DNA of 6,511 bases from a virus (lineage: Duplodnaviria > Heunggongvirae > Uroviricota > Caudoviricetes): the IMG/VR virus record IMGVR_UViG_2541047126_000018. One strand, given 5' to 3'. The notes under the pieces were generated by a model. It was not told the DNA's origin and ran no database searches. It saw only the letters and a program-made list of their open reading frames with translations. Positions 133 through 6,395 of this stretch are shown here, piece after piece. The position numbers and the translations under genes were made by a program. Numbering within the stretch: position 1 is the stretch's first letter; each line of letters begins with the position of its first letter.

Positions 133-322
133 CTCACTTTTTCGCCTCACTTTTTCAAGCGTCTCACTTCGTCGCAGTTGGGATTTTCGGTTTTTCTATG
201 TGTGTGTTTCATAAGTATTTTTTTACCCCTCACTTTTGAGGATGTATACAGGTCGAAAAGTGAGGGAGAGCGGGCTAATTTTGGCCCTCTTTCTATCCCC
301 CTCGCTTTTGCTCCTCACTTTT
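133..322. repeat. Iteron array with AT-rich spacer; putative origin of replication downstream of rep
   Basis: Direct copies of CTCACTTTT or close variants at 133-141, 146-154, 163-170 (CTCACTTC), 229-237, 301-309 (CTCGCTTTT), 314-322, plus an inverted copy AAAAGTGAG at 256-264 forming an inverted repeat with the 229-237 copy; AT-rich stretch about 181-226. The last copy overlaps the rep stop codon (321-323). Confidence 0.55.
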
Positions 323-1721
323 ATAGCGGCGCTACATCATCCCCATCGATACGAATAACCCCATCTTTTTCCAGCTTGTACAGCCAGCGCCGGAAGTTTT
401 TCATTTCATACCCCAGCTTTTTCATGTCATCACGTAACAGCGGGATCGTGCACTTGTCGCCGTTCTGTGTGCGTGAACGGATGCACCCCCATAGCGCGGT
501 ATGGTTTTCCGTCTTGTTCCCTGCCTCCTCGATGCGCTCCAGTTCAACAGGAGGGCGCGGATCATCCACCACCACCAGCAACGTGATTAATTCACCGTCA
601 GCGTCGGTAAAAAGCTCCACCACGCGTAAGTCATATGCGGCTTCTTTGAGTTCCTCCGCGTCCTTCATTTTGGTGCATGAGATAACCAGCGCTTCGCTTC
701 CTGCGTCCTCCCTGCGTATCCGGTATTCAGCATCCAGCGAAGCACGAAATGCACTGGAACCGCGCGCGCCTTTCGTCTCATCCTTGCCGGAATGGTGAAC
801 CACCAGCACCGTGGCCCCTGTGCGTCGTTTCAGTTCGTCACAACCACGGATAAACGCCCCCATATCACGGGAATCATTTTCATCATTCCCACCAAAGCAA
901 CGCGCCAGCGTATCCAGAATAATCATGCGTACAGGTTTACCCGTTTCCCGCTCCACCTGACGGGCAGCGATAACCATTTCATCAACATCAAGCGGGGCAG
1001 CCGGAAAGATGGGGCGGTTTACCAGATACAGATTTTTCACCTGCTCATCGTGCACAACCTCCCAGGCTTTTACACGACGCGGAACACCTATACCGCCTTC
1101 ACCAACCACATAGAGAACCGCACCATGTGCAACCCTGCGGCCTCCCCACTGGCGACCAGTGGCAACATGGCACGCCCACGATCCGGCAAGGAATGATTTA
1201 TAGGACCCGCTAGCCCCGTATATGCTGCATAGCGATACCGCCGGAATAATCCCCTTAACCACGTAATCCAGTTGCGTGTCGTATCCGGTAGATCCAACGC
1301 TCATCGGTAGCGTGGTTTTTCGCTGGTGGTTTTTTTCTTCCGCCGGCTCTTTCCCGCGCACCCGTTCCAGGTATTCGCGCCAGTTCTCCCGCATATGGCT
1401 GTGCATCCCTTCGGGGTAATAATTCGCATCAGTTACACCCGCCGCCGCCAGCTTGTGCGCAATGGCATTAATATTTGATGGCCTGATGTGGCCTGCCTTG
1501 TACAGCCGGACACAATAGCGCCCCTCGTCGATGATTCTCAGTTCTGCCAGTTCATCCAGTTGATCATCAGCCAGCACAACGGGAGGCACATTATCGCCAG
1601 CCAGTCGCCCGTCCTGTTCCTGCCACTGTTTCGCATGTGCCCAGGCATCACTACCCGCAAAAATAATGACTTCGGTCATCTTGTCGTAAGGCTGTTTTTT
1701 TAAGTTCGGTGCGCTTTTCAT
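321..1721 (-). CDS. Replication protein, RecA-fold (AAA_25 / RepA-like) helicase-type ATPase with an N-terminal domain of unassigned type
   Basis: 466-aa ORF; deviant P-loop GASGSYKS, Walker B-like VRMIILD, and VLVVHHSGKD resembling the HH..K motif of RepA/DnaB-like RecA-fold ATPases; SD AGGGG about 7 nt before the ATG; ATGA overlap with the upstream ORF; iterons immediately downstream. Family assignment is from motif recall, not a search. Confidence 0.8.
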   Translation of the reverse strand: MKSAPNLKKQPYDKMTEVIIFAGSDAWAHAKQWQEQDGRLAGDNVPPVVLADDQLDELAELRIIDEGRYCVRLYKAGHIRPSNINAIAHKLAAAGVTDANYYPEGMHSHMRENWREYLERVRGKEPAEEKNHQRKTTLPMSVGSTGYDTQLDYVVKGIIPAVSLCSIYGASGSYKSFLAGSWACHVATGRQWGGRRVAHGAVLYVVGEGGIGVPRRVKAWEVVHDEQVKNLYLVNRPIFPAAPLDVDEMVIAARQVERETGKPVRMIILDTLARCFGGNDENDSRDMGAFIRGCDELKRRTGATVLVVHHSGKDETKGARGSSAFRASLDAEYRIRREDAGSEALVISCTKMKDAEELKEAAYDLRVVELFTDADGELITLLVVVDDPRPPVELERIEEAGNKTENHTALWGCIRSRTQNGDKCTIPLLRDDMKKLGYEMKNFRRWLYKLEKDGVIRIDGDDVAPL

Positions 1722-2017
1722 TTCTTGCCCCTGAATCCGTTAACCATGGTTTTCAGCTTCTGGATGTTTGCCCGTGCCCTGGCGTTGCTGGTGGGCACGT
1801 TATGCGGCGCGGTCTGTACCAGAGAAAAATCACGCCGGAACTGATAAACAGGCATCACGCAATCATATTCGTAACCTTCACGGCGGTAGGTTACGCGCCG
1901 TTCTTCCACGCCCTTAATCATTACCGTGCCGCCGTACTGGTCGCGGTAAATATCACCGCGCGTAAATTTAGGGTGAGTGTTGCCACTGGCAGTTAAGCCA
2001 GAATATTTAAGTTTCAT
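1718..2017 (-). CDS. Hypothetical protein, 99 aa, translationally coupled to rep
   Basis: Complete ORF; GGAGA about 9 nt before the ATG at 2017; its stop overlaps the rep start (ATGA at 1718-1721). No motif recognised. Confidence 0.6.
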   Translation of the reverse strand: MKLKYSGLTASGNTHPKFTRGDIYRDQYGGTVMIKGVEERRVTYRREGYEYDCVMPVYQFRRDFSLVQTAPHNVPTSNARARANIQKLKTMVNGFRGKK

Positions 2018-2713: not shown

Positions 2714-2915
2714 AAAGCATCCCCTGAATATTCGTGTTAATCATTCCGGCACGTTTTGTGATTTCCTGTAATGATTCCCTTGTGGCGACAATTGCTTCAT
2801 CTGGTAAGTGGTAATTACACACCACGCGACCTTTATCCACATTGACCAGTAGCTGCCCTGTGAATTTCTCACGAAACTGAATGCGGTTAAGGTCAGTAAG
2901 TGACAGATTAATCAT
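2703..2915 (-). CDS. Hypothetical protein, 70 aa (start moved to the internal ATG at 2915)
   Basis: Track ORF 2703..2957 trimmed: the ATG at 2915-2913 has a consensus SD AGGAGGTG 4 nt upstream and sits 2 nt after the stop of the upstream ORF (ATGATTAA junction); the 2957 start has no SD and would overlap the upstream gene by 50 nt. Confidence 0.6.
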   Translation of the reverse strand: MINLSLTDLNRIQFREKFTGQLLVNVDKGRVVCNYHLPDEAIVATRESLQEITKRAGMINTNIQGMLYAQ

Positions 2916-3111
2916 GGCGCACCTCCTGACGAATACGGGCGGCAAATACAGCAACACAACCTGACGGGCAACGGCTACGCGCTTCGCGTTCCGTCCAGGC
3001 GGTTACGTGGATGATTTGAGATTCTCCGGCACTCAGGGCCAGAAAACGCCAGATGTATTTATTCAGGTTGTGCGAGTCCCGCCCTTGCGGGTGTGTGGTA
3101 TGATTTAACAT
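2908..3111 (-). CDS. Hypothetical protein, 67 aa, first gene of the replication-side operon
   Basis: Track ORF 2908..3606 trimmed to the internal ATG at 3111-3109 with GAGGT SD; the longer version would run through the divergent promoter region and the RHH gene on the other strand. Confidence 0.5.
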   Translation of the reverse strand: MLNHTTHPQGRDSHNLNKYIWRFLALSAGESQIIHVTAWTEREARSRCPSGCVAVFAARIRQEVRHD

Positions 3112-3190
3112 AGCTACCTCGATACTGTTGCTATCGTTGGTTGTTAGACGCCCTGCATGTGTGCCACCACTGCGGGGCGTTGTTATTTGG

Positions 3191-3301
3191 TGCATCGCAC
3201 CATCTGTTTTTAACCTATCAGCAAGTGAATCGCACTTCAAGCCTTTTCTCTGAATTTTTTTTGTGTATACTGAATCGCACCAACTTAGAGAGGATTCAGT
3301 A
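3191..3301. promoter_or_regulatory. Divergent promoter/operator region between the RHH gene (+) and the small-gene/rep operon (-)
   Basis: Three direct copies of the 10-mer TG(A/C)ATCGCAC at 3191-3200, 3226-3235 and 3271-3280; plus-strand -10-like TATACT at 3266-3271; candidate minus-strand promoter TTGAAG (plus 3235-3240) with 17-bp spacer to TAGGTT (plus 3212-3217); inverted repeat CTGAATC/GATTCAG (3269-3275 / 3293-3299) flanking the RHH SD. Confidence 0.4.
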
Positions 3302-3481
3302 ATGGCAACAGGTTCAACAAATAATAAGTCGCAACAGTTAAATGCCAGATTCCCGCATGATGTTGTTGCAGACTTAGAAAAAAATTTAGATGAAGGTGAA
3401 AGCAAAGCGCAATTTATAGTTACTGCCGTTAAAGGCGAAATCAAACGCCGCCAGCGCCGCAAGGCCAAAGAGCAGGAATAG
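3302..3481 (+). CDS. Ribbon-helix-helix (CopG/Arc/MetJ-type) DNA-binding regulator, 59 aa
   Basis: ATG at 3302 with SD AGAGAGGA 7 nt upstream (the track's 3263 start is a GTG without SD); the segment QLNARFPHDVVADLEKNLDEGESKAQFIVTAVKGEIKR fits the beta-strand/helix/helix RHH pattern; basic C-terminal tail; only plus-strand gene in the element. Confidence 0.65.
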   Translation: MATGSTNNKSQQLNARFPHDVVADLEKNLDEGESKAQFIVTAVKGEIKRRQRRKAKEQE

Positions 3482-3569
3482 CCCACCAGCAAGCCAGCAC
3501 ACTGAGCACATTGCCCACCAGACAGCAAATCGCTATGATGTTCGGGCTTATGTTTAGTGTTTTCCCATT

Positions 3570-3598
3570 GGCGACCGCCACAGGTCGCCTTTGTTTTA
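3570..3598 (+). terminator. Rho-independent terminator downstream of the RHH gene
   Basis: Stem GGCGACC (3570-3576) / GGTCGCC (3583-3589), loop GCCACA, followed by TTTGTTTTA (3590-3598). Confidence 0.55.
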
Positions 3599-3615
3599 TG
3601 TGTCATATGTTCCCC

Positions 3616-3840
3616 CTACGCTGCCTTACCTGAATTAATACGATCCCGGCTTTTAACCCATTCCATAACCTCGGAAAGCAGCCAACCTACTGAACGACCA
3701 CCCAGATTACGGCGTGACGGGAAATTCCCTTTTTTCTCCAGTTCGTAGCGTGTAGTGCGGCACACTCCTGTTAACTTACGGCATTCATCCTCACGGATTA
3801 CGCGATCTGATAGTGATTGAAATTGTGTATTTTGATTCAT
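3616..3840 (-). CDS. alpA: AlpA-family (MerR-like HTH) prophage transcriptional regulator / excision activator
   Basis: 74-aa ORF; segment CRKLTGVCRTTRYELEKKGNFPSRRNLGGRSVGWLLSEVMEWV matches the AlpA HTH signature (...GxSRST.Y.L...G.FP.P..LGGRSV.W...EV..W...) from memory; located downstream of a P4-type integrase. Confidence 0.8.
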   Translation of the reverse strand: MNQNTQFQSLSDRVIREDECRKLTGVCRTTRYELEKKGNFPSRRNLGGRSVGWLLSEVMEWVKSRDRINSGKAA

Positions 3841-3875
3841 AAAAAAACGTCCTCGAACGTTGCCGAACGAGGACG
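3841..3875 (-). terminator. Terminator/attenuator-like hairpin plus U-tract between the cargo gene and alpA (minus-strand sense)
   Basis: 8-bp stem CGTCCTCG (3848-3855) / CGAGGACG (3868-3875) with 12-nt loop; on the minus strand it is followed by 7 U (plus A7 at 3841-3847) and then directly by the alpA ATG (3840); the GAGGA in the 3' arm is the only SD-like element for alpA. Confidence 0.5.
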
Positions 3876-3902
3876 ATTCTAGGCGGTAGTAAAACGCCGT
3901 TT

Positions 3903-3935
3903 GTGTGATATCACACTACCAGCACGTGATATCAC
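3903..3935. promoter_or_regulatory. Paired palindromes, candidate operator in the cargo-alpA intergenic region
   Basis: Perfect 14-bp palindrome GTGTGATATCACAC (3903-3916) and second copy of the core GTGATATCAC (3926-3935), the latter overlapping the cargo stop codon; minus-strand -10-like TAGAAT (plus 3876-3881) nearby. Confidence 0.4.
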
Positions 3936-4705
3936 TTTTTACGTTTTTGTTGAGATTCACGCCCCAAATACTTTTGCCATGTCTGCCAATGTGTTTTTGG
4001 AAATTCTATCCCTCTGGATGCAGCTATAGAATCAATTAAATCTGCTATTTTAGGTAATGATTCCGTGTCCAGGTCTACATCACCCATTTCTGGAATAAGT
4101 TTAATTAAAGAGTAAATAACCTCATTCCTTTTTGACGATGCTTTTGGGCTATCTTCTGTTATCTTCGGGAAGTCTCCCGTATTTTTTATATTATCTAAAT
4201 CACTAGCCATCACACACAAATAGTTAACATCAAATTCATAACCACCCTTACAAAAAACATACATGAGATTATCATCACCATACTTATTCGTAAGATGAGA
4301 ACATTTTATATATTGTCTCATGCTAAATTCGACATCAGCAAAAACATATGCCGGAGTATAATAAAACCCTGATAAGCTGCTAACATAATAACATTTGATA
4401 GAATTCCCTACAGGACCAATAATGGCACTATCTAAAAATTCAGTGTCACCAGTTAAACCAACTGTAAAATTACTTCCAAAAACAGCAGATTCATCATTGA
4501 AAGGATATTTTATTAATTCTTCCTCATTACAACCATTGATAAAATGACATAATGAAAAATTGAATTTTTTAGCATCAATTTTTGGTATATATACAGAAAT
4601 ATTAAGAGCACCTATATATGCGTAATGATAAAGATCTTTTATTGCACAGCCTAACTTTTCTGCCGCTTCAGGTAACGGATAATAGAGTCTTTTAGGTAAT
4701 TTCAT
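3932..4705 (-). CDS. Hypothetical low-GC cargo protein, 257 aa, translationally coupled to the integrase; candidate accessory/defence gene
   Basis: Complete ORF; ATG at 4705-4703 overlaps the int stop TGA (4704-4702) as ATGA, with SD GAAGGTGG inside the int 3' end; GC by eye about 30-35 percent versus about 50 percent in int and rep; no catalytic motif recognised; terminator follows. Confidence 0.8.
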   Translation of the reverse strand: MKLPKRLYYPLPEAAEKLGCAIKDLYHYAYIGALNISVYIPKIDAKKFNFSLCHFINGCNEEELIKYPFNDESAVFGSNFTVGLTGDTEFLDSAIIGPVGNSIKCYYVSSLSGFYYTPAYVFADVEFSMRQYIKCSHLTNKYGDDNLMYVFCKGGYEFDVNYLCVMASDLDNIKNTGDFPKITEDSPKASSKRNEVIYSLIKLIPEMGDVDLDTESLPKIADLIDSIAASRGIEFPKTHWQTWQKYLGRESQQKRKK

Positions 4706-5925
4706 TTGGCCACCTTCAGCATAACAATATTTTCATGATTTCCAGCCAGCACATCGAGGCGCTCAACCCATAGATTAAGAGCGTCACGTTTTGCATCAAG
4801 ATAACGGGAGTGATTATAGACTCGTTGCATTCCTGGCAACTGGTGCGCGGTAAGCTGCTCCACAACATGCGGTTCCACGCCTAAATCGTTCAGCATCGTT
4901 GTAAACGTGTGCCGGATGTCGTGCAACGTCCAGGGGGCTTGATTAATGCGTCTGTGTGCCGTTCTTCCGTACTCTGATACGGATGATTGCCCTTTCAGTT
5001 CTCCGAGCAATAAGCCCGTGTGCCTGTTCTGCTCCACCAGCTTCATGACAAACGGCAAGATCGCTTCCGGTATTGGCCTGAATATTGCTACCTTCGTTTT
5101 GCTGTGTTCTTTCGGCACGGTCCAGAGCATTTCTTTAAAATCCCATTCCTGGACCTCAGAGCGTCTTAGCTCAGTGGTACGACATCCGAAGACAATCAGG
5201 AGGCGAATCAGGGCGCTGTAGTACGGTGGGTAAATTTTTTCATCAAGGGCGCGTAGTAATTCCCCAAGCTCCTTGTTTGTTAGTACGCGCTCGCTTATTT
5301 CTGCTTTTTTCCCAACATCACCGACAACCATATCATCAAGAACGTTGCTGATTGCGTATCGTCGTTTTCGGCAGTACTTAAGCGCCTGTTTGCATACCTG
5401 TAGCAAAAATCCGGCTGATACCGGATTACGCTTAGCAAGCTGGTCAAAACAGGCCAGCCAGTGGCGTAGCTCGCATTTTTCCAGTGGCATAGCTCCAATC
5501 TGGCTAATTATGTGTTTATTGATCCGGCTTTTCAGTGATTCGTAGTCAGTGCGCTTTTCCTTTGCGTACGATTCAAGCCAGTAAGTGAGCGCTTCCTTAA
5601 CCGTCACGGGGGCTAACGCGTCCTGTACAGCATGATTAAGTTCATAGCGCGGATTTTTCCCCTCAGCCAGCCATGCGCGACATTGCGACGCTTTTTCCCT
5701 GGCTGCTTTCAGGCTCAAATCTGGATAATTTCCCAGCCTCAGACGTTCAGGTGATATCTGCCTACCAGTTCCGGACCTGTAAGTGAAATACCAGGTTAAC
5801 AGGCCATTGGTTGAATGCCTTACGCTAAGGTTGCCACCATCATTAAAAAAGGTGCTTTTTGTGGTTGGTGATCCGCTTAATTTTCGTAAAAGAGTGTCGC
5901 TAAGTCTATGAATTGCCCTGCTCAT
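4702..5925 (-). CDS. int: Tyrosine recombinase / integrase, P4 family (DUF4102-type N-terminal arm-binding domain)
   Basis: 407-aa ORF; N-terminal NDGGNLSV...LGNYPDLSLKAAREKA matches the DGGGLYL...LG.YP..SL..AR pattern of P4-type integrases; box I-like CRTTELRRSEV; box II LHDIRHTF...LTAHQ...RVYNHSRY with the catalytic Tyr candidate. Confidence 0.93.
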   Translation of the reverse strand: MSRAIHRLSDTLLRKLSGSPTTKSTFFNDGGNLSVRHSTNGLLTWYFTYRSGTGRQISPERLRLGNYPDLSLKAAREKASQCRAWLAEGKNPRYELNHAVQDALAPVTVKEALTYWLESYAKEKRTDYESLKSRINKHIISQIGAMPLEKCELRHWLACFDQLAKRNPVSAGFLLQVCKQALKYCRKRRYAISNVLDDMVVGDVGKKAEISERVLTNKELGELLRALDEKIYPPYYSALIRLLIVFGCRTTELRRSEVQEWDFKEMLWTVPKEHSKTKVAIFRPIPEAILPFVMKLVEQNRHTGLLLGELKGQSSVSEYGRTAHRRINQAPWTLHDIRHTFTTMLNDLGVEPHVVEQLTAHQLPGMQRVYNHSRYLDAKRDALNLWVERLDVLAGNHENIVMLKVAK

Positions 5926-5946
5926 GTTTCGTGTTTCCGGTCATCA

Positions 5947-5974
5947 AAATTAACTACACCATTGACTACACCGT
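5947..5974 (+). repeat. Direct repeat A1 (AAATTAACTACACCATTGACTACACCGT) containing two ACTACACC octamers 12 bp apart
   Basis: Read directly; ACTACACC at 5953-5960 and 5965-5972; near-identical copy at 6179-6206. Confidence 0.8.
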
Positions 5975-5988
5975 GCATCGTACAAGGG

Positions 5989-6236
5989 CGAACTGTGACG
6001 AACAAGGGCGAACAAGAAAAACGAAATTATCCTTTATAATCATAGAAATAAATTAGATGCCCACACCATGACGAACACCCACGAACACTAACTGATAAAT
6101 AACTATCATTTATAACATTTCATTGATTAGTCTTTATTTTTCACTATGTTACAAATAACAACTCCGTCAAAAACAGCGAAATTAACTACACCATTAACTA
6201 CACCGTTTCACGAACAATATCGAACAACCACGAACA
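5989..6236 (+). repeat. Eight same-orientation CGAAC(A/T) sites in three clusters with 10-bp phasing; candidate integrase arm-type sites or iterons
   Basis: CGAACT at 5989; CGAACA at 5999, 6009, 6072, 6082, 6211, 6221, 6231; within each cluster the spacing is exactly 10 bp; a 12-mer ACAAGGGCGAAC is duplicated at 5982 and 6002. Confidence 0.75.
6179..6206 (+). repeat. Direct repeat A2 (AAATTAACTACACCATTAACTACACCGT), second copy of A1, 232 bp downstream
   Basis: Read directly; ACTACACC at 6185-6192 and 6197-6204; followed by the CGAACA triplet at 6211-6236, the same arrangement as A1 plus its triplet. Confidence 0.8.
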
Positions 6237-6395
6237 AAGATCAACACGCTTTAACCGTTATCATTTTCCGGCCATCCGTTATGAAGCTGGTGGATGTTCC
6301 CCGATATGGGTATCCCCACCTACCTGGCTTTTTTTCCGGTTAAATGTTAATCAGGCTGGTGGCCTTTACATACCCTTGATCACGGTAATGATGAT

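Follow-up and report, generated by a model that had tools for sequence, protein, structure and literature searches.

What does a gene lodged between the integrase gene and the activator gene alpA do in a phage satellite? The question is raised by a DNA stretch of 6,511 nucleotides (nt) from a member of the Caudoviricetes (IMG/VR virus record IMGVR_UViG_2541047126_000018), referred to as a whole as the window. In this stretch an open reading frame (ORF) of 257 amino acids (aa), here named ORF257, lies between int and alpA on the minus strand (positions 3932..4705). A preliminary description had presented it as a low-GC orphan and as candidate cargo, possibly with a defence function. The reading put forward here, tentatively and at somewhat short of even confidence, is that ORF257 is a putative satellite-encoded regulator of the alpA promoter, that its variable core senses the helper phage, and that it functionally resembles the Stl repressor of the Staphylococcus aureus pathogenicity islands (SaPIs). 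ORF257 may thus help explain how such satellites sense helper phage. The alpA gene is auto-activating, and the role of AlpA in the induction of phage-inducible chromosomal islands (PICIs) is described in the literature (PMC6092414); according to the same work, it is not known by what means helper phages turn alpA on in Gram-negative PICIs. In the literature searched, the ORF257 protein (WP_000775337) appeared in no paper, and no regulator between int and alpA in Gram-negative PICIs was mentioned.

ORF257 is a genuine gene that overlaps int

Analysis of the junction between int and ORF257 revealed that the ATG of ORF257 (4705-4703) shares bases with the TGA stop codon of int (4704-4702), giving an ATGA overlap. 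The Shine-Dalgarno (SD) sequence GAAGGTGG of ORF257 (4710..4717, minus strand), identified by direct reading, is located within the int coding sequence, 4 nt 5' of the ATG. Both features had been reported in the preliminary description and are confirmed here, with the minus strand to be added. The int gene (4702..5925, minus strand) encodes a tyrosine integrase of 407 aa (Pfam Phage_integrase, 1.6e-17; Arm-DNA-bind_3, 2.1e-16; RefSeq, tyrosine-type recombinase). An overlap of 4 nt or 8 nt between int and the ORF is kept in Klebsiella, Providencia, and Salmonella, in agreement with the translational coupling proposed earlier. The SD motif of the Klebsiella and Providencia homologues is the same as, or similar to, GAAGGTGG.

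ORF257 is a genuine gene, because its reading frame stayed open in 0 of 20,000 composition-matched shuffles of its bases and because the ratio of nonsynonymous to synonymous substitutions (dN/dS) relative to the closest allele, L027, was 0.18 overall. The ratio was 0.20 in the core and 0.09 in the C-terminus. The protein WP_000775337.1 was found in 55 of 5,426 complete Escherichia coli genomes, mainly in the Shiga-toxin-producing lineages O157:H7, O145:H28, and O103:H2, where satellite-prophage interplay affects gene transfer. The conserved 3' end of ORF257 together with the operator DNA was present in 66 complete E. coli genomes.

The GC content of ORF257 (0.323; 0.213 at third codon positions [GC3]) is far below that of int (0.484; GC3, 0.502). 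This part of the earlier statement on base composition stands. The downstream flank, however, is alpA (GC content, 0.462) and not rep, as had been assumed; the GC content of the repA-like helicase gene is 0.541.

The int-alpA slot in related satellites

The 80 islands closest to the window element were selected by their integrases (74 to 100% identical), blind to the content of the slot between int and alpA. The slot was empty in 79 of these islands, contained ORF257 in one (the window's own element), and contained another gene in none. In the loci surveyed the slot is therefore binary, being either empty or occupied by the ORF257 family only. The 79 empty spacers are non-coding, 353 to 421 bp in length, and have a GC content of 0.31 to 0.40. 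Since they are equally AT-rich, the low GC content belongs to the slot itself, whether or not a gene occupies it. Furthermore, in Klebsiella, Salmonella, and Providencia the GC content of the family ORF is likewise 10 to 15 points lower than that of its int. Because the empty spacers are equally AT-rich and the offset tracks each host, low GC is not the mark of one foreign import, and the earlier argument from composition to separately acquired cargo is not upheld. Neither did the slot behave as an integrase-adjacent variable site exchanged for known defence genes, none of which was found in it among the 80 relatives. Reported immune hotspots of PICIs are located between att and int, at the 3' end, and downstream of pri, and the int-alpA interval is not among them (PMC11364771, PMC10085698). 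The empty spacers (L182-L260) presumably contain the elements through which alpA responds to helper phage in the common type of PICI. The spacer of EcCICFT073 (L041, 3051-3415) contains runs of GAACAAC and GACACAA direct repeats.

Comparison of the window with an empty-slot island (int 3' end, 95% identical) revealed two points at which homology is lost: one at about 3808, within the 5' end of alpA, and the other at about 4723, 18 nt short of the int stop codon. Relative to the closest int relatives, the gene thus lies in a swapped cassette, and in this sense the separate acquisition proposed earlier was borne out. ORF257 comes with a new alpA upstream region that displaces the native one of approximately 400 bp; therefore, the control of alpA must be rewired.

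In all 37 fetched loci encoding a family ORF, alpA is positioned 50 to 135 nt downstream. Wherever the contig reaches, int is positioned upstream, mostly overlapping the ORF by 4 or 8 nt. Seven further family contigs were found through the DNA motif described below, giving approximately 44 contigs in total. The carriers, from at least six enterobacterial genera, belong to Escherichia, Salmonella, Klebsiella, Providencia, and Pantoea and include an uncultured Enterobacterales metagenome-assembled genome. The int-ORF-alpA synteny spans integrases of 26 to 100% identity and several chromosomal insertion sites. One alpA allele (97 to 100% aa identity) was paired with ORFs of 32, 52, and 100% overall identity. 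This fixed synteny and the dedicated region of palindromes, promoter, and hairpin argue for a regulatory component rather than cargo. Judged from gene order and sequence, ORF257 does not appear to be an exchangeable cargo gene; it appears to be a fixed component of the control region between int and alpA in some enterobacterial satellites of the PICI type.

The control region between ORF257 and alpA

The alpA gene (3616..3840, minus strand) encodes a 74-aa regulator of the activator/excisionase type (Pfam Phage_AlpA, 3.4e-16) and is the proposed control target. The spacer between ORF257 and alpA comprises 91 nt. Palindrome 1, GTGATATCAC (3926..3935), overlaps the ORF257 stop codon (AAG TGA), and palindrome 2, GTGTGATATCACAC (3903..3916; core, 3905-3914), is located 21 bp from it, centre to centre. 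The palindrome motif has two matches in the window, compared to 0.2 expected by chance. Approximately 22 nt of unconserved sequence separates palindrome 2 from a -10-like hexamer, TAGAAT (3876..3881, minus strand), which is a predicted element of the alpA promoter; no -35 hexamer was recognizable. The hexamer abuts the 5' arm of a conserved hairpin, CGTCCTCG-(12 nt)-CGAGGACG (3848..3875, minus strand), with a predicted energy of -17 kcal/mol. The 3' arm of the hairpin contains the alpA SD sequence (GAGGA), the 5' arm is the corresponding anti-SD sequence, and the loop contains GTTCG-N5-GTTCG. A run of seven T residues (3841..3847, minus strand) is located between the hairpin and the alpA ATG and, together with the hairpin, resembles an intrinsic terminator.

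The geometry of the palindrome pair (20 to 22 bp apart), the hexamer, and the hairpin is fixed in Salmonella, Klebsiella, Providencia, Pantoea, and metagenomic loci, and the sequence between these elements is unconserved. In the other genera, an A/T-rich -10-like hexamer (TACAAT, CAGAAT, AATAAT, or TTAAAT) abuts the hairpin in most loci and is weak in a few. Covariation analysis of the hairpin revealed pairing in 91.9% of the cells analyzed versus 37 to 48% in slid controls, and 0 of 500 shuffles reached the observed score. Compensatory changes were detected in six of the eight pairs, with double changes in 24 cells. The T run is present in E. coli and Salmonella and absent from the Klebsiella and Providencia versions, while the SD/anti-SD pairing is conserved; a role of the hairpin as a universal intrinsic terminator was therefore rejected. 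The empty-slot islands examined (L002 and EcCICFT073) contained neither the palindromes nor an SD-sequestering hairpin. Searching Rfam yielded only a spurious snoRNA match, and a tRNA scan yielded none.

Modular architecture of the ORF257 family

An initial search revealed 19 clusters at 90% identity, all from Enterobacterales and all annotated as hypothetical, and an exhaustive profile search revealed 390 representatives at 50% identity, 54 of them with E values below 1e-30. The gene is therefore not the orphan that it had been taken for. It is uncharacterized, as stated earlier: scans of Pfam and NCBIfam gave no match, and the RefSeq entry is annotated only as "hypothetical protein". In alignments, the N-terminus and the C-terminal module are conserved and the core between them is hypervariable, and by this pattern ORF257 is classified here as a member of an undescribed three-module protein family. 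The N-terminal module (residues 1-45; 4571..4705, minus strand) resembles a winged helix-turn-helix (HTH) of the excisionase/AlpA/MerR type, and its key residues are the best conserved across the superfamily; its aa identity to other members is 36 to 96%. The hypervariable, beta-rich core (residues 46-185; 4151..4570, minus strand) is the proposed input or sensor domain. It shares only 16 to 34% aa identity with other alleles, with the sole exception of the closest allele, L027 (94%), and its DNA identity is 30 to 66% between flanks of 90 to 100% identity. The helical C-terminal module (residues 186-257; 3935..4150, minus strand) is conserved (40 to 99% aa identity), belongs to subtype 1, and ends in ...TWQKYLGR and a basic tail.

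The AlphaFold2 model (predicted local distance difference test [pLDDT] score, 78) comprises a strand-helix-helix-wing fold (residues 8-40), a beta-rich core (51-166), a disordered linker (178-186), and a helical C-terminus (187-255). The strand-helix-helix-wing arrangement is that of the excisionase/AlpA/MerR class, and the best structural matches of the N-terminus were Pukovnik Xis, RdfS, and the AlpA-family Xis of GIsul2, all of which are excisionases. The suggestion that the N-terminus is HTH-like is thereby substantiated at the level of structure prediction and fold search. Sequence profiles were less informative. HTH_17 and Phage_AlpA did not reach the gathering threshold for ORF257, and among 121 scanned relatives only one reached HTH_17 (E value, 9.6e-4) and none reached another family. 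The N-terminus thus appears to belong to the excisionase/AlpA winged-HTH class by predicted structure and not by hidden Markov model (HMM). The sole PADLOC and PHROG matches were faint and restricted to the N-terminal 45 or so residues: mad1 in PADLOC-DB v2 (E value, 0.015; 13.6 bits; residues 8-34), which reflects a generic HTH, and phrog_13283 (E value, 0.021). No known defence family was thus matched, contrary to the defence role considered before.

Bro-N, KilA-N, ANT, AntA, Phage_pRha, and P22_AR domains were found neither in ORF257 nor in the 121 relatives. The isolated core and C-terminal segments matched nothing in Pfam or PHROG, and the core had no match in PDB or BFVD either. The viral fold search in BFVD gave nothing at an E value of ≤1e-3, a PDB sequence profile search gave no meaningful relative of ORF257, and a peptide-pattern scan of contigs from one genome per species gave no family member. 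Profile searching with the C-terminal module retrieved only fragments of the family itself, and no DNA-binding fold was matched by this module. The Pfam scan, the AlphaFold2 model, and the fold search revealed no evident enzymatic or membrane effector feature, in keeping with the lack of a catalytic motif noted in the preliminary description.

Candidate reader of the palindromes

Comparison of the loci revealed that palindrome type follows C-terminal subtype. Subtype 1 (...TWxKYLGR) occurred with GTGAnnTCAC pairs in 18 of 18 distinct loci. Subtype 2 (...GKTxxxWLxxV...) occurred with GGAAnnTTCC pairs in five of six distinct loci, the sixth (L018) having a single GTGGGAATTCCCAC; in some subtype-2 loci the pair is located inside the last codons of the ORF. 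ORF257 is the best candidate reader because it is the only module-specific protein, and it probably acts through the C-terminal module, since palindrome type follows the subtype of this module. The N-terminal HTH is near-identical between subtype-1 and subtype-2 proteins, and the idea that it covaries with the palindromes was dropped. AlpA was also dropped as the reader. The AlpA proteins of L020 (GGAA type) and L031 (GTGA type) are 81% identical and have the same recognition helix, those of L020 and L021 are only 36% identical and both loci are of the GGAA type, and AlpA of L002 is 84% identical to that of the window, yet this locus has no palindrome. An initial impression that L018 to L020 are devoid of operators was corrected once the GGAAnnTTCC-type pairs (the single GTGGGAATTCCCAC in L018) were located in the last ORF codons. 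In L019 and L020, the last 45 nt or so of the family ORF contain operator repeats (TGGAAATTTCCA, twice) within the coding sequence, so that a repeated peptide (…LEISKSAMEISKK), imposed by the putative DNA-binding sites, forms the end of the protein.

A better candidate than the palindromes for the AlpA or Int-arm site is provided by phased GTTC(G) repeats. The window contains 10 GTTCG motifs on the coding strand of int and alpA, all of them located at 5993-6013, 6076-6086, and 6215-6235 (between att and int) or at 3854-3868 (hairpin loop), with 10-bp phasing, and GTTC-N6-GTTC was observed 6 times, compared to 0.06 expected. Other loci, among them the empty-slot islands L002 and EcCICFT073, also have similar phased GTTC/GAAC pairs upstream of int and upstream of alpA. 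Upstream of int in the window there is a direct repeat of 73 nt (74% identical; 5942-6014 and 6174-6246). Each copy consists of a tandem GGTGTAGTTAAT-like doublet followed by a TTGTTCG array, and the repeats probably mark the protein-binding arms of the attachment region.

The paired palindrome was considered as a mark of helper phages. This was rejected, as the viral contigs carrying it represent an unrelated family with GTGATATCA iterons. This phage family, seen in L045 (1690-1800) and in about 40 similar IMG/VR contigs of approximately 55 kb, contains GTGATATCA iteron arrays and an exact GTGATATCAC-N12-GTGATATCAC pair between divergent small genes; possession of the motif is thus not sufficient to identify the satellite module.

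Proposed control of alpA by ORF257

The arrangement described above suggests the following mechanism. In the quiescent island, ORF257 would be made together with the integrase through the observed ATGA overlap. The protein would bind the two palindromes that start at its own stop codon, probably through the C-terminal module. These palindromes are centered near -40 and -61 of the alpA promoter, counted from the start predicted by the -10-like hexamer. Read-through transcripts from int and ORF257 would fold the hairpin and thereby make the ribosome-binding site of alpA inaccessible; termination of transcription by the hairpin is a probable further effect in E. coli and Salmonella. Transcripts from the alpA promoter are predicted to begin inside the 5' arm of the hairpin and would thus escape it. 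The hypervariable core would be the input domain for a helper-phage product and would set which phage switches on alpA, a step modeled solely on SaPI Stl. Between repressor and activator, the evidence leans slightly toward a gatekeeper or repressor. The missing -35 hexamer and the operator positions suggest an activator, while the presumed constitutive coexpression with int, the insulation of the auto-activating alpA, and the Stl analogy suggest a gatekeeper.

Several points weigh against this regulator model. The covariation of C-terminal subtype and palindrome type could reflect the physical linkage of adjacent DNA, and the one domain that has a DNA-binding fold, the N-terminal HTH, shows no covariation with the palindromes. 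The promoter and the start site are predicted solely from a weak -10-like hexamer. The pair GTGATATCAC-N9-13-GTGATATCAC was found in unrelated contexts in 129 of its 139 other occurrences. Finally, most related satellites (79 of 80) do without ORF257, which is therefore not a general solution.

A farther-reaching version, possible but rather doubtful, is that the ORF257 family is the missing helper-phage sensor of a Gram-negative satellite class, a Stl-like switch made from unrelated parts in which core alleles choose the inducing helper via the alpA promoter. If this is true, the C-terminal module would be a new DNA-binding domain reading GTGAnnTCAC or GGAAnnTTCC pairs, and the beta-rich core would be a new phage-protein-binding fold. 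The locus is a compact candidate for alpA induction, in which a single protein, a pair of palindromes, a promoter, and a hairpin all fit within approximately 900 bp, and it comes with naturally swapped alleles of the putative sensor domain in an otherwise identical setting. It also calls for caution in reading a low-GC gene beside an integrase as defence cargo when the slot is AT-rich even if empty and holds no other gene in 80 relatives.

Alternative functions of ORF257

It is unlikely that ORF257 is anti-phage defence or helper-interference cargo, in which the variable core would sense an infecting phage, the protein would block it, and the position beside int would be an accessory slot. A hypervariable core between conserved flanks is indeed expected of a protein facing fast-evolving phage partners, and low GC together with gain or loss by recombination among close int relatives would suit cargo. 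PICIs carry immune genes, the literature refers broadly to accessory genes located between int and the regulator (PMC10085698), and novel single-gene PICI systems such as Tai likewise had no database match (PMC11364771). The strict synteny and the region of palindromes, promoter, and hairpin would, however, be left unexplained by such a role, as would an acquisition that deletes the native alpA control region. Moreover, neither a defence HMM match nor an effector feature was found, the slot is without any other gene in the 80 relatives, and the reported immune hotspots lie elsewhere. A function as a recombination directionality factor (RDF) or integrase accessory, with an Xis-like winged HTH that bends DNA or contacts Int, is very improbable. 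The structural matches of the N-terminus to excisionases speak for it, but a protein of 257 aa with a large variable core is far larger than known RDFs. Many int-xis operons are translationally coupled, and the coupling of ORF257 to int is conserved; closely related integrases (97% identity), in contrast, work without ORF257, and AlpA, the usual excisionase-type factor of PICI-type satellites, is still present. The palindromes are located approximately 2 kb from the att end and occur in the island only at 3903-3935, which argues against an RDF as far as the palindromes are concerned.

The palindromes might also be read by a helper-phage or host regulator. Their co-occurrence with the gene would then reflect adjacency, and ORF257 would have another role, e.g., inter-satellite immunity. 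In satellite P4, the promoter lying upstream of the alpA homologue is a direct target of the helper proteins Cox and Ogr, which provides a precedent. Helper control of this promoter is touched on in PMC10111431. The C-terminal module is without a DNA-binding fold match, the N-terminal HTH does not follow the palindromes, and GTGATATCA-type repeats are operators in unrelated phages; all of this would suit an external reader. Such a reader is nevertheless considered quite unlikely, as the palindromes occur only in ORF-bearing modules, their type switches with C-terminal subtype across very divergent sequences, and the viral contigs yielded no helper-like phage with the paired motif, which was present in a single, unrelated phage family.

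Relation to known regulators

By analogy, the closest functional counterpart of ORF257 would be the SaPI Stl repressor; membership in that group fails on sequence and gene arrangement. Like Stl and Rpr of Gram-positive PICIs, ORF257 is satellite encoded and positioned beside int in a presumably constitutively expressed unit adjoining the promoter of the induction genes. It likewise combines an N-terminal DNA-binding domain (DNA binding being presumed for ORF257) with a highly divergent domain, and the diversity of its alleles could determine helper specificity. In the logic proposed here, contact between a phage protein and the variable domain would turn on the induction genes, which would also correspond to Stl. 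Unlike Stl and Rpr, ORF257 has no match to XRE/HTH_3 or to a repressor family in the Pfam, NCBIfam, and PHROG scans, in which Stl sequences were not compared directly. In addition, ORF257 is codirectional with and downstream of int, whereas Stl lies upstream of int, in divergent orientation to the induction genes; the proposed target of ORF257 is the activator gene alpA and not a whole operon; and ORF257 has an extra conserved C-terminal module.

AlpA, P4 Vis, and other winged-HTH proteins of the excisionase type (Phage_AlpA, HTH_17) are single-domain proteins of 60 to 75 aa, whereas ORF257 adds approximately 210 residues, stays below the threshold of the Pfam models, and is followed directly downstream by a separately encoded AlpA. 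Satellite proteins of the Bro-N/KilA-N/Rha type, e.g., CapR of PLE, resemble ORF257 in being modular, combining a DNA-binding end that is conserved with partner domains that are swapped, and some are repressors. ORF257, however, contained none of the domains Bro-N, KilA-N, Rha, ANT, and AntA, and the Bro zone is located downstream of alpA, in contrast to the position of ORF257 in the integration zone upstream of alpA. Genes of the Bro type (Phage_pRha, AntA) are separately present after alpA in the Salmonella and Providencia loci. Empty-slot PICIs such as EcCICFT073 share the gene order int, alpA, ylcI/icd-like, DUF4222, primase/helicase, an AT-rich int-alpA interval, and phased GTTC/GAAC repeats near att and upstream of alpA. 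They differ in having a non-coding spacer (353 to 421 bp) without an ORF, a GTGAnnTCAC pair, or an SD-sequestering hairpin.

The satellite and the remainder of the window

E. coli 2014C-3061 has an island that includes a stretch 100% identical to the int-ORF-alpA segment; this island is positioned between clpS and cspD/yljB and carries primase, terS, and major capsid genes. From the primase, terS, and capsid genes of this matching island, the host element is assigned to the phage satellites of the PICI or capsid-forming PICI type. The gene content expected of Gram-negative or capsid-forming PICIs is represented by int, alpA, and a helicase gene in the window and by terS and the capsid gene in the 2014C-3061 island. 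No complete E. coli genome contained at least 80% of the window, which indicates that the window is a recombinant mosaic of satellite lineages.

The window int is 97% identical to integrases of empty-slot islands (L181-L211). In the metagenome contig L025, an identical ORF257-alpA block is joined to an int of 69% identity. The left part of the window contains an AAA_25 RepA-type helicase gene (321-1721, minus strand), which is unlike the primase of the O157-type island L001, and a DUF4222 gene (1718-2017, minus strand). The window also holds several small ORFs. A 232-aa ORF (2908-3606, minus strand) without a family match is probably not a gene; it overlaps a gene of the YlcI/YnfO family (3263-3481, plus strand). 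The latter is positioned between alpA and the icd-like region and is the sole plus-strand gene of the window.

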